From Clostridia bacterium (GTDB lineage: Bacteria; Bacillota; Clostridia; Christensenellales; UBA1242), in contig JAZSAE010000027.1 of NCBI GenBank assembly GCA_045601705.1, positions 1 to 48,640 on the forward strand: a stretch of DNA of 48,640 nucleotides, in the 5' to 3' direction. Both the position numbers and the translations under genes were made by a program. This document shows positions 43,567 through 45,820 of this stretch, in pieces. The notes under the pieces were generated by a model. It did not search any database. It was not told where the DNA came from and worked only from the letters and a program-made list of their open reading frames with translations. Positions within the stretch are counted from its first letter, which is position 1; each line of letters starts with the position of its first letter.

Positions 43567-45084
43567 TTATTGAACCACGCTGGGGTTAAAAGCCGGGTTA
43601 ACCGGAACACCCATTAAAGTACAAACCGTCGCAGCAATGTTGGTTAAGCCGAATTCGCCGTCTTGCAATTTTACATCTGGTGTTCCGAATGGACAAATAA
43701 TCATCGGCACTAAATTGTTTGTATGTGAAGTTTTGGTCTTCCCCGTTTCGTCTGCCATTTCTTCGGCATTACCGTGATCAGCAGTAATAATTAAATTGAC
43801 ACCTTGTTCACGGCAAACCTCGTACAAGCGCCCGACGCATTCATCCACTGTTTGACAAGCAATTACTGCAGCTTCAAAGTTACCAGTATGACCAACCATA
43901 TCCGGATTTGGCAAATTACATTTTAAGAAATCATAGTCGCCGCTTTGAATTGCTGCAATTAATTTTTCAGTAATTGGTTCAGCTTGCATTTTAGGTGCTT
44001 TGTCATACAGATTGTTGAGTTTATCACTGGGAATTTCTAACCACGTTTCTAACTGTGCATCAATTGGTGCACTTTTATTGCCATTAAAGAAATAAGTCAT
44101 ATGTCCAAATTTTACTGTTTCGGTAACTGTGTACTGACGCACACCGTATTCACATAACCACGATGTTAAAGTATTATTTATGACTGGTGGTTCACACAAG
44201 TAATTTGCTGGCAAGTTCATTTCGGCATCGTATTGCAAAATACCAGCAAAGTAACAATCTTTTATTTGCGCAAATTGTTCAGTTGTAACATAATCACCGT
44301 TATCAAACATACGAGCTGTTTCAACGGCACGGTCGCCACGATAATTTAATAATAAAATTGCTTCACCATTTTTAATTAAGTTATTAGGGTCAACGATGAC
44401 TGGTGGAACTTGTTCATCTGATAAAGTCGGATACGCTTGATAAAATTCTTCCAAATACGTACGCCAATCTTTTACAACAGGTGCTTTACCTTCCACACAA
44501 ACTTCAAAAGCTTTAGTAAGCATTTCGGTTTGGGCTTGATAACGGTCCATAAAGATTTGACCACGTCCACCGATAACTGACAAGTTTGGTACTTGTGCCA
44601 AAAACTCAGCTGCCGAACGTGGACTGACGTCACGTCCATCGGTAATCGCAATCACGCTGAATGGCAAGTTTTGTTTTTGACATTGTTCAATCACTTGAAA
44701 TAAGTGTTCAATATTACTATGAACTCGTCCGTTACTACACAAAATAATAATATTCAATTTTGGAAAAGTGCTGATTTTTTGCCAGACTGGTGATTTAAAA
44801 ATTTTACCCGTCGCAAACGCATCATTCAATAAAGAAAGTCCTTGCTTGATAGTTACACCAGCTCCCATTGCGTTGTGACCAACTTCACTGTTCCCTGCAT
44901 CTTTAGCACTATCAAGACCAACTTCGTGTCCACTAGCTCGAATTAAAGTATGAAGATGTGATTCCATTGCTTTGTTTAAATTAGGCATACCTGCAGCCGT
45001 TACAGCATTACCGGTCGTGCGTTCACAATAACCTAAACCGTCCATGACACACAAAACTGTTTTATTAAATTGCTTATTTGTCAT
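43567..45084 (-). CDS. gpmI: 2,3-bisphosphoglycerate-independent phosphoglycerate mutase
   Basis: LCVMDGLG, GNSEVGHNAMGAG, ITADHGNAE. Start set to ATG 45084 behind GGAG (45096-45093). Confidence 0.92.
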   Translation of the reverse strand: MTNKQFNKTVLCVMDGLGYCERTTGNAVTAAGMPNLNKAMESHLHTLIRASGHEVGLDSAKDAGNSEVGHNAMGAGVTIKQGLSLLNDAFATGKIFKSPVWQKISTFPKLNIIILCSNGRVHSNIEHLFQVIEQCQKQNLPFSVIAITDGRDVSPRSAAEFLAQVPNLSVIGGRGQIFMDRYQAQTEMLTKAFEVCVEGKAPVVKDWRTYLEEFYQAYPTLSDEQVPPVIVDPNNLIKNGEAILLLNYRGDRAVETARMFDNGDYVTTEQFAQIKDCYFAGILQYDAEMNLPANYLCEPPVINNTLTSWLCEYGVRQYTVTETVKFGHMTYFFNGNKSAPIDAQLETWLEIPSDKLNNLYDKAPKMQAEPITEKLIAAIQSGDYDFLKCNLPNPDMVGHTGNFEAAVIACQTVDECVGRLYEVCREQGVNLIITADHGNAEEMADETGKTKTSHTNNLVPMIICPFGTPDVKLQDGEFGLTNIAATVCTLMGVPVNPAFNPSVVQ

Positions 45085-45820
45085 AATTGATGACTCCATA
45101 AAATGAATCTACTTGCAAAGATGAACCAACGAAGAAAATACCGTCAAGATCACTTTGTGCCATATATTTTTTCACGTTTGCTGGTGTAATATGTCCACCA
45201 TAAAGGATTGGTAAACTAGCATCCAATGGATTATTTTTTAAACCGATTAAACATTCACGGATGTGTTTTGCTACCATATTAACATAATCAGGTGTAGGCA
45301 AAATACCACGTTGTTGCACCCAAATTGGACGATAACAAACGATAATATCATTGATGTTAGAAACACCAACCAATGCACCTTGAATTTGACGTTTCAAAAC
45401 TTCCAAGGTCAAATTGTTTTTATTTTCATCCCAAGTTTCACCAACACACAATACAGGTGTAATACCATACTTTTGTAAAAGTTTAATTTTCTTGTTAACA
45501 ACTTCATCTTGCTCAAAACTTAGACGCCAAGTACCATCACCAACGATACAATACTTTACGCCATATTCTTTTAAAAGCTCAACACTTAGTTCGCCCATAC
45601 GACCACCGAATTCAATTTCGCTGACGTCTTGCGCACCCAACTGCAATGGTTTAGGCATTTTCAAACGAGCAATTTCGTAATAACACGCTGCTGGTGCTAC
45701 GATAACTTCGGTTTTGTTTTTGAGTTCTAAACCACGTTTATAAACTTGTTGAAAAAAGTCTAAAACTTCCTTTGGTTTTTTGTTTGATTTCCACGCTGCA
45801 AAAAATACTGGTCTACGCAT
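45074..45820 (-). CDS. Triosephosphate isomerase homolog with substituted catalytic residues (TPI-like, probably not a functional TIM)
   Basis: Full-length collinearity with TpiA (MRRPVFFAAWKSNK, CVGET, YGG, DLDG..VGSSL) in the pgk-tpi-gpmI position. However, Asn is Ala (A9), His95 is Asp (IVGDGTWR versus GHSERR) and the catalytic Glu is Arg (CYRPIWVQQRG versus AYEPVWAIGTG). Start trimmed to ATG 45820. Confidence 0.8.
   Translation of the reverse strand: MRRPVFFAAWKSNKKPKEVLDFFQQVYKRGLELKNKTEVIVAPAACYYEIARLKMPKPLQLGAQDVSEIEFGGRMGELSVELLKEYGVKYCIVGDGTWRLSFEQDEVVNKKIKLLQKYGITPVLCVGETWDENKNNLTLEVLKRQIQGALVGVSNINDIIVCYRPIWVQQRGILPTPDYVNMVAKHIRECLIGLKNNPLDASLPILYGGHITPANVKKYMAQSDLDGIFFVGSSLQVDSFYGVINYDK

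Follow-up and report, generated by a model that had tools for sequence, protein, structure and literature searches.

The open reading frame (ORF) described here, called X below, occupies the tpi slot of the pgk-tpi-gpmI operon in a 48,640-nucleotide stretch of DNA from a Clostridia bacterium (contig JAZSAE010000027.1, assembly GCA_045601705.1), which is referred to throughout as the window. Its product is a predicted full-length triosephosphate isomerase (TIM) barrel with three of the four catalytic residues lost. TIM is the standard example of a perfect enzyme, and its Asn/Lys/His/Glu set is regarded as invariant. X is under purifying selection as strong as that on gpmI, and by its sequence it lies inside a monophyletic family, separate from the canonical TIMs, that lacks the catalytic Glu. 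The preferred reading, given a probability of about 0.5, is that X would be a selected TIM-barrel protein other than triosephosphate isomerase, a putative non-isomerase that would bind a three-carbon, phosphorylated ligand and cooperate with phosphoglycerate kinase (PGK) and phosphoglycerate mutase (GpmI).

X lies at positions 45074-45820 of the minus strand and encodes 248 amino acids beginning with MRRPVFFAAWKSNK. The Pfam TIM family PF00121 matches it from end to end with 170 bits (residues 6-246 on profile positions 3-244 of 245), which bears out the description of X as an end-to-end TpiA homolog in an earlier note on this DNA. X can be aligned with bacterial TpiA over the full length at 30-36% identity, but it scores under all NCBIfam tpiA equivalog cutoffs (105.5 versus 130.6 bits for TIGR00419). 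An AlphaFold2 model of X forms an eight-stranded barrel (pLDDT 89.5, pTM 0.89), and its best Foldseek match in the PDB is the Staphylococcus aureus TIM 3uwu, with a TM score of 0.91. The features of X are as follows, where omega stands for the ratio of nonsynonymous (dN) to synonymous (dS) divergence.

45074..45820, minus strand: X, predicted TIM-barrel paralog without the catalytic base (A9, K11, D95, R164), from Pfam, NCBIfam, AlphaFold2, Foldseek and omega
45794..45796, minus strand: codon 9, Ala, in the catalytic Asn column, from the alignment; Cys, Thr or Ala in the clade of X, never Asn
45788..45790, minus strand: codon 11, the catalytic and phosphate-binding Lys, retained in the same column in every full-length family member examined
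45536..45538, minus strand: codon 95, GAT, Asp, in the catalytic His column, read from the DNA; Asp in 24 of 24 inner-subclade sequences
45329..45331, minus strand: codon 164, CGT, Arg, in the catalytic Glu column, read from the DNA; Arg in 35 of 35 sequences of the clade and in the locus L016
45831..45834, minus strand: GGAG, Shine-Dalgarno-like, 10 nt upstream of the X ATG and within the end of pgk, read from the DNA

The alignment of X with the S. aureus TIM 3m9y is free of gaps around all catalytic motifs. GNWKMN of the Asn column is replaced by AAWKSN (A9, with K11 kept), GHSERR of the His column by GDGTWR (D95, Gly96, Thr97), and AYEPIWAIGTG of the Glu column by CYRPIWVQQRG (R164). When X was aligned jointly with 297 canonical TIMs, the catalytic His and Glu were conserved in 100% and the Asn in 94% of them, and all three are replaced in X. 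At the canonical-invariant positions Met13, Ser96, Ala169, Ser211 and Leu230, X has S12, G96, V168, H210 and F229, and replacement at these five positions is common to its whole Glu-less family. The same catalytic replacements recur in 23 close relatives. The earlier note had listed these three replacements and the retention of Lys11, and its account is confirmed by the gap-free alignment, by direct reading of the codons and by the recurrence in relatives. Chance or misalignment was rejected as the source of the changes, since the columns concerned are 94-100% conserved in the 297 canonical TIMs. A sequencing error or frameshift behind GDGTWR was also rejected, as the motif is found in 24 independent sequences and the same frame aligns on both sides of it.

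As judged from these residues, the mechanism of TIM is closed to X, which has a cation in place of the base and an Asp in place of the electrophilic His, and which has lost the supporting Ser96 and Glu97. In TIM, the single change E165D lowers kcat 1500-fold, K12M is dead, and Ser96 is 98% conserved (PMC12874384). It has to be considered whether X is still the triosephosphate isomerase of the cell and works with substitute residues. X occupies the tpi slot, its public NCBI annotation is triosephosphate isomerase, and no second TIM was found in the 48.6-kb window. Against this stand the loss of three of four catalytic residues, with the base replaced by a cation, the 1500-fold cost in kcat of E165D alone (PMC12874384), scores below every tpiA equivalog cutoff, and the canonical tpiA genes that relatives carry near or next to X. 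This possibility is therefore considered very improbable.

The elements that would hold a ligand have been retained in part. X keeps Lys11, the Tyr-Gly-Gly of loop 7, Pro166 and Trp168. The Ser that follows Tyr-Gly-Gly is a His in X, loop 8 reads VGSSL versus the canonical GGASL, with Val in place of a first Gly that is present in 100% of canonical TIMs, and the loop-6 tip is changed from Gly-Thr to Gln-Arg. The persistence of ligand-binding elements claimed in the earlier note thus holds for Lys11 and YGG, but only in part for the phosphate loop.

Relatives were collected by a word-indexed search of 5.8 billion proteins, and GTDB species genomes were scanned for loci. Thirty-four clusters match X at 55-93% identity, after which identity falls abruptly to 33% and the canonical TIMs begin. 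Eighteen loci came from the GTDB species scan; almost all belong to metagenome-assembled genomes (MAGs) of rumen, cecum or rectum that are labelled Clostridia, Eubacteriales or Christensenellaceae bacterium. These close relatives are named here the Arg clade, a group of at least 35 clusters of sequences found in Clostridia MAGs of the rumen and gut. Without exception the 35 Arg-clade sequences carry Arg164, as does a Christensenellaceae copy (L016) with 48% identity. Asn never occurs at position 9, which has Cys, Thr or Ala and is one of the two most variable positions of the pocket. The order pgk-X-gpmI is kept in L001-L015, and in every one of these loci the identity of X to the window copy equals or exceeds that of PGK. 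Three Clostridia-type pgk-X-gpmI contigs (L006, L008 and L015) sit in Prevotella-labelled MAGs, which suggests mis-binning or mislabelling.

The members of the Arg clade differ in how far their pockets have changed. Clade-wide replacements at canonical-invariant positions are Met13 to Ser or Ala, Thr75 to Met, Ala163 to Cys, Ser211 to Gln, His, Asn or Gly, Leu230 to Phe, and Gly232 to Val. Outer members (P0032-34 and L016) have His95 (Asn in P0034), Glu97 and the canonical loop-6 Gly-Thr-Gly. Middle members (P0024-31) keep His95 and have Glu-Arg-Gly in loop 6. The inner subclade, to which the window copy belongs, is the only group with Asp95, Gly96, Thr97, Trp98 and Gln170. Along the Arg branch the pocket thus changed in stages: Glu to Arg164, Asn to Cys/Ala9 and Thr75 to Met came first, the loop-6 tip then passed from Gly-Thr to Glu-Arg, and His95 to Asp and Glu97 to Thr were last.

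Selection on X was estimated by the Nei-Gojobori method in the subclade of the window, using 19 pairs with dS below 2. Omega was 0.046 for X, 0.086 for PGK and 0.045 for GpmI, and the unsaturated pair L002-L003 gave a dN of 0.009 and a dS of 0.358 for X. All 18 loci from GTDB species, and over 30 clusters of proteins, have the ORF intact. These results bear on the view that X is a decaying tpiA relic, translated but no longer selected. The lost catalytic residues would suit such a relic, as would the phosphoketolase route of the window, which could bypass TIM, but an omega of 0.046 that matches gpmI, the intact ORFs, the confident predicted barrel and an Arg164 that is invariant down to 48% identity leave it hardly any probability. 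The earlier note had offered decay or repurposing of the barrel and had proposed a comparison of dN and dS with orthologs; the purifying selection found here, together with the invariance of Arg164, leads decay to be rejected and supports repurposing.

The wider family was reached through one Arg-clade locus, L015. Its X is 63% identical to that of the window and still has His95, and about 2.3 kb upstream of its pgk-X-gpmI, beside pth and mfd, lies a TIM of 236 amino acids with canonical motifs throughout (ANFKMN, GHSERR, AYEPIWAIGTG and YGGS). Contigs found by way of this TIM carry a tandem operon, pgk (401 amino acids)-TIM (254)-TIM (236)-gpmI. In these operons the 236-residue copy is canonical, while the 254-residue copy directly after pgk has the Asn, Lys and His but a Gln as base (AYQPSWSIGTGH). 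A query with this Gln-type sequence returned about 59 further clusters of 43-100% identity, in all of which Gln, Met or Thr takes the place of the base and Lys and His are retained; they have in common Ser96 to Val, Ser211 to Gly or Gln, and Leu230 to Met. The canonical TIMs lower in the same match list all have the full N-K-H-E set. A profile of the Arg clade, run exhaustively against 1.84 billion cluster representatives, placed only three 50%-identity clusters above the canonical background, among them the Gln-type P0195 with 232 bits versus 186 bits for the best canonical TIM. One Gln-type X (P0344) is deposited under the beetle Holotrichia oblita on a 1.2-Mb scaffold and probably stems from a gut bacterium whose DNA was assembled with that of the insect.

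Across the family the base column holds Gln, Met, Thr or Arg, never Glu, and the residue is fixed within each subfamily. Lys11 is invariant, and so is His95 outside the inner Arg subclade, with the exception of the outer member P0034 (Asn). The Tyr-Gly-Gly of loop 7 and the Pro-x-Trp of loop 6 are likewise invariant, and Ser96, Ser211 and Leu230 have changed family-wide along with the base position. In a metagenome scan that gave 51 loci, each TIM-like ORF was classed by its four catalytic columns, and the following arrangements were found.

pgk-X(N,K,H,Q)-tpiA(N,K,H,E)-gpmI: about 15 loci
pgk-X(S/N/D,K,H,M), often last in the transcription unit: the Met group
pgk-X(S,K,H,Q)-gpmI: the Ser-Lys-His-Gln group
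pgk-X(R)-gpmI: the Arg clade

Where a locus extends far enough to show the preceding gene, X nearly always follows pgk directly; the exceptions are L016 and L023, in which X-gpmI lacks an adjacent pgk. Phylogenetic analysis was performed by neighbour-joining with 93 sequences and 200 bootstraps. All proteins without the Glu form one group in 200 of 200 replicates, also when 18 diagnostic columns are deleted, and the Arg clade is supported in 200 of 200. The short canonical companion TIMs form a clade of their own and are sister to X in 0 of 200. No NCBIfam model specific to the family and no member with a solved PDB structure were found, and a literature search for a TIM pseudoenzyme or a TIM paralog without the Glu gave no relevant description. 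This TIM-like family of gut and rumen Firmicutes is thus apparently undescribed.

The tandem loci and L015 also indicate where the changes in X came from. The earlier note had suggested that phosphoketolase could make the interconversion of triose phosphates dispensable, with the barrel then repurposed or decaying. As an origin of the changes this explanation fails, because loss of the Glu predates the lineage of the window and took place where the same operon still holds a canonical tpiA. Since this loss is common to the wider family, X was already a non-TIM paralog before any loss of TIM. By these comparisons X is a long-standing paralog that has a function of its own, and not a degenerated TIM.

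Whether the lineage of the window also has a true TIM was approached by several routes. Except in L015, no canonical TIM was found near Arg-clade X in the available DNA up to 10 kb on each side. Among the matches listed for the companion TIM of L015, only two relatives exceed 50% identity, and the tandem-operon copies are at 45-49%. Nothing like the expected 20 or more clusters was found for a companion-TIM ortholog of the inner subclade, in a word-indexed search that a xenologous TIM would escape. Synteny was followed with the L015 neighbours clpX, nusG, secE, tilS, mfd, pth, rplJ and rplL, and tblastn of these against the window and all loci gave no matches. Several candidate companions were rejected. 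The canonical TIMs P0154 and P0143, of 238 amino acids, belong to another organism with a normal gap-pgk-tpi-gpmI order and a PGK of 393 amino acids, and P0078 is on a small contig that is unrelated. The companion TIM has its nearest neighbours in the tree in P0094 and P0153, but these are in pgk-gpmI-tpiA operons without X, in records outside the X-bearing MAGs. P0076, on a 1.5-kb contig, shares its JGI sample with the outer Arg-clade locus L024, and this link is only suggestive. The loci L084 and L085 have close relatives of the companion TIM in pgk-gpmI-tpiA with a full-length PGK and no X; operon order is fluid in these lineages. It is possible that the lineage of the window lives without TIM. 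The phosphoketolase and acetate kinase genes reported for the window in the earlier note were both recovered by profile matches, and they at least encode a predicted route that bypasses TIM, from pentose or hexose phosphates to glyceraldehyde 3-phosphate (GAP) and acetyl phosphate.

What X does can be approached through its pocket and its gene neighbours. X most likely still binds a phosphorylated three-carbon metabolite, as Lys11, YGG and most of the phosphate-gripping scaffold are kept and the cationic Arg164 and Arg171 have been gained. The main role of the TIM Lys is binding of the phosphodianion (PMC12874384). In the Arg lineage the ligand could plausibly carry a carboxylate or a second phosphate, as do 3-phosphoglycerate (3-PG) and 1,3-bisphosphoglycerate. 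3-PG differs from GAP in that its C1 is oxidised to a carboxylate, and it is the metabolite handed from PGK to GpmI. Among the Foldseek matches of X are listed S. aureus TIM complexes with 3-PG (3uww) and 2-phosphoglycerate (2-PG; 3uwv). A phosphoglycerate-type partner is favoured because of Arg164 and Arg171, because the TIM pocket accepts 3-PG and 2-PG, and because 3-PG links the PGK and GpmI whose genes flank X. X would not turn over its ligand but would serve PGK and GpmI, with which it is presumably co-translated, as an accessory, regulatory or channelling partner. Confidence is moderate that X may be an accessory protein of this kind, coupled to PGK and GpmI and binding a phosphorylated three-carbon compound of phosphoglycerate type; it is low for the specific ligand assignment, which draws on side-chain chemistry and gene position.

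The main rival is that X is a new enzyme, in which Lys11, with His95 or here Asp95, performs new chemistry on a phosphorylated three- or four-carbon substrate of lower glycolysis; a Schiff-base or acid-base reaction without Glu165 would be an example. The invariance of Lys11 throughout the family and of His95 outside the inner Arg subclade (P0034, with Asn, apart) accords with it, as do an omega as low as that of a true enzyme, the strict fixation of residue 164 within each subfamily, and the retention of X beside canonical tpiA, which implies a different job. However, the subfamilies have chemically unrelated residues (Gln, Met, Thr, Arg) where the base used to be, and His95, Glu97 and the loop-6 tip have been replaced again inside the Arg clade, where positions 95-98 and 168-171 keep changing and position 9 varies among small residues. 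The pocket is also no more conserved than the remainder of X: 19 of 25 pocket positions are invariant versus 57% elsewhere (P=0.18), and a second test gave P=0.26, neither of them significant. Furthermore, no matching reaction is known to be missing beside PGK. Because the base is chemically arbitrary, the pocket is changing and there is no excess of conservation, a binding pocket that sheds negative charge fits better than a fixed new catalytic apparatus, and a new enzyme is regarded as conceivable but unlikely.

A further possibility is that X is a dead subunit of the prozyme type, which would form heterodimers with canonical TIM and tune its activity or stability. TIM is an obligate dimer, and the active site of each subunit is completed by Thr75 of the other (PMC10249627). 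In TIM, Asn11 and Thr75' of the partner subunit belong to one hydrogen-bond chain, and N11A loosens the dimer (PMC10249627). Both residues of this chain are replaced in X, whose loop 3 is altered (Thr75 to Met; Ser, Cys or Asn in the tandem group), and X adjoins canonical tpiA in the approximately 15 tandem loci. On the other hand, the Met group, the Ser-Lys-His-Gln group and all Arg-clade loci but one are without a canonical TIM within 10 kb, and a companion-TIM ortholog was not detected for the subclade of the window among the matches listed, although X is strongly constrained there. A prozyme partner is thus possible for the tandem-operon species but fits the subclade of the window poorly, and overall it is judged decidedly improbable.

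Some observations weigh against a phosphoglycerate-binding partner of PGK and GpmI. The adjacency of pgk and tpiA is ancestral in Firmicutes, and the position of X after pgk may be inherited and not functional. Conservation of Lys11 and His95, within the limits given above, would suit a new catalytic dyad. Loop 8 is altered (GG to VG, and TV, AI or GP in other subfamilies), as is Ser211, and binding of phosphate may not be assured. The ligand is proposed from side-chain chemistry and gene position, and the arrangement of Arg164, Arg171 and Asp95 in the pocket is presumptive.

The two genes that flank X are given below.

45822..46874, minus strand: pgk, short form, 350 amino acids, 371 bits with Pfam PGK
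43567..45084, minus strand: gpmI, cofactor-independent phosphoglycerate mutase, 364 bits with TIGR01307 (cutoff 330.65)

The TAA stop of pgk ends at 45822 and the ATG of X is at 45820, leaving a spacer of 1 nt, and the start of gpmI overlaps the end of X by 11 nt. The gpmI ATG at 45084 is preferred over the ATG at 45099 chosen by the ORF caller, as an in-frame stop codon precedes the equivalent position in relatives; GGAG is found 9 nt upstream of it. The arrangement therefore agrees in all its coordinates with the tpi slot drawn in the earlier note. In 20 of 20 Arg-clade loci the spacing from pgk stop to X start is between -8 and +3 nt. None of the X-bearing loci showed a glyceraldehyde-3-phosphate dehydrogenase (GAPDH) gene within 10 kb of pgk; a comparison organism (L019-L022) has the usual gap-pgk-tpi-gpmI order. 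The PGK of the window lacks about 50 amino acids of its C-domain in comparison with residues 221-290 of Thermotoga maritima PGK, and the substrate-binding motifs in the alignment are kept. PGK has 350 amino acids in the middle and inner Arg clade, 409 in L026 of the outer Arg clade and 401 in L027; in L024 it has 366 as the called gene and 384 by other ORF calling. Shortening of PGK across the family could reflect co-evolution with X.

Several known systems resemble X in part. TpiA (EC 5.3.1.1; PF00121, TIGR00419) shares its fold, length, operon slot between pgk and gpmI, Lys12, YGG, Pro166 and Trp168. X differs from it by replacement of Asn10, His95, Ser96, Glu97, Glu165, the loop-6 tip, Ser211, Leu230 and the first Gly of loop 8, and also by its score below the equivalog cutoff, its separate clade (200/200) and its coexistence with true TpiA in relatives. 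The Thermotoga-type PGK/TIM fusion (NF010569) is the best-scoring NCBIfam model for X, with 158.6 bits, and has a similarly tight link between PGK and a TIM barrel. Here, in contrast, pgk ends in TAA and X has its own Shine-Dalgarno-like motif and ATG, giving two proteins, and the scores with this model, 158.6 and 383.8 bits, are far under its cutoff of 883 bits. The TIM half of the PGK/TIM fusion is catalytically canonical. The TIM paralogs PRK15492 and PRK14905 are, like X, second TIM-family genes in bacteria with a diverged role, but X scores only 90-97 bits with them versus cutoffs of 485-509, and its base is absent. L-erythrulose-1-phosphate isomerase (EryH/TpiB) is a specialised, catalytically intact TIM paralog, and paralogs of the PRK15492, PRK14905 and EryH type keep the Asn/Lys/His/Glu set and remain isomerases. 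The AdoMetDC prozyme of trypanosomatids (PMC6221367) may serve as an analogy only, being a paralog that is conserved despite the loss of catalytic residues and persists beside the active enzyme; for X, heterodimerisation and activation would be hypothetical, and the subclade of the window has no detectable active partner.

X exposes a coherent, apparently undescribed TIM subfamily that is widely mis-annotated as TIM, and not a new kind of system. The Gln-type paralog (L027:8216-8980; P0343) scores 158.9 bits with TIGR00419, over the equivalog cutoff of 130.6, and automated pipelines consequently give this base-less type the name triose-phosphate isomerase. Reconstructions from rumen, cecal and other gut Firmicutes MAGs may thus credit a TIM step that X, by its residues, should be unable to perform. 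The family is a natural experiment in what the TIM scaffold does when isomerisation is impossible. If the subclade of the window indeed has no canonical TIM, its central carbon metabolism would be unusual. A broader proposal can be made only tentatively: that the selected Glu-less TIM-barrel family is coupled to PGK through a new activity or an obligatory binding role, and that the lineage of the window, without a true TIM, runs phosphoketolase and lower glycolysis without interconversion of triose phosphates.

The phosphoketolase of the window (11612-13873, plus strand, 753 amino acids) scores 951.5 bits and narrowly misses the cutoff of 962 of its best NCBIfam subfamily. The acetate kinase (2607-3638, minus strand) scores 421 bits with TIGR00016 and is short, with 343 amino acids covering profile positions 58-356 of 405. 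The short acetate kinase, the phosphoketolase just under its cutoff and the short PGK hint at generally trimmed proteins in this organism. Five large ORFs in 26976-32980 (minus strand; 398, 382, 313, 309 and 328 amino acids) match no Pfam family at E<=1e-5, and they are followed by an alkaline-phosphatase-like gene at 32984-34213; together these may form an uncharacterised gene cluster. Upstream of pgk, the ORF at 47309-48445 (minus strand) encodes 378 amino acids with a signal- or anchor-like N-terminus and many 'W(T/S)DG..IYY' repeats. The ORF at 41402-42508 (minus strand) encodes a protein of 368 amino acids with a long Ala/Val-rich stretch.

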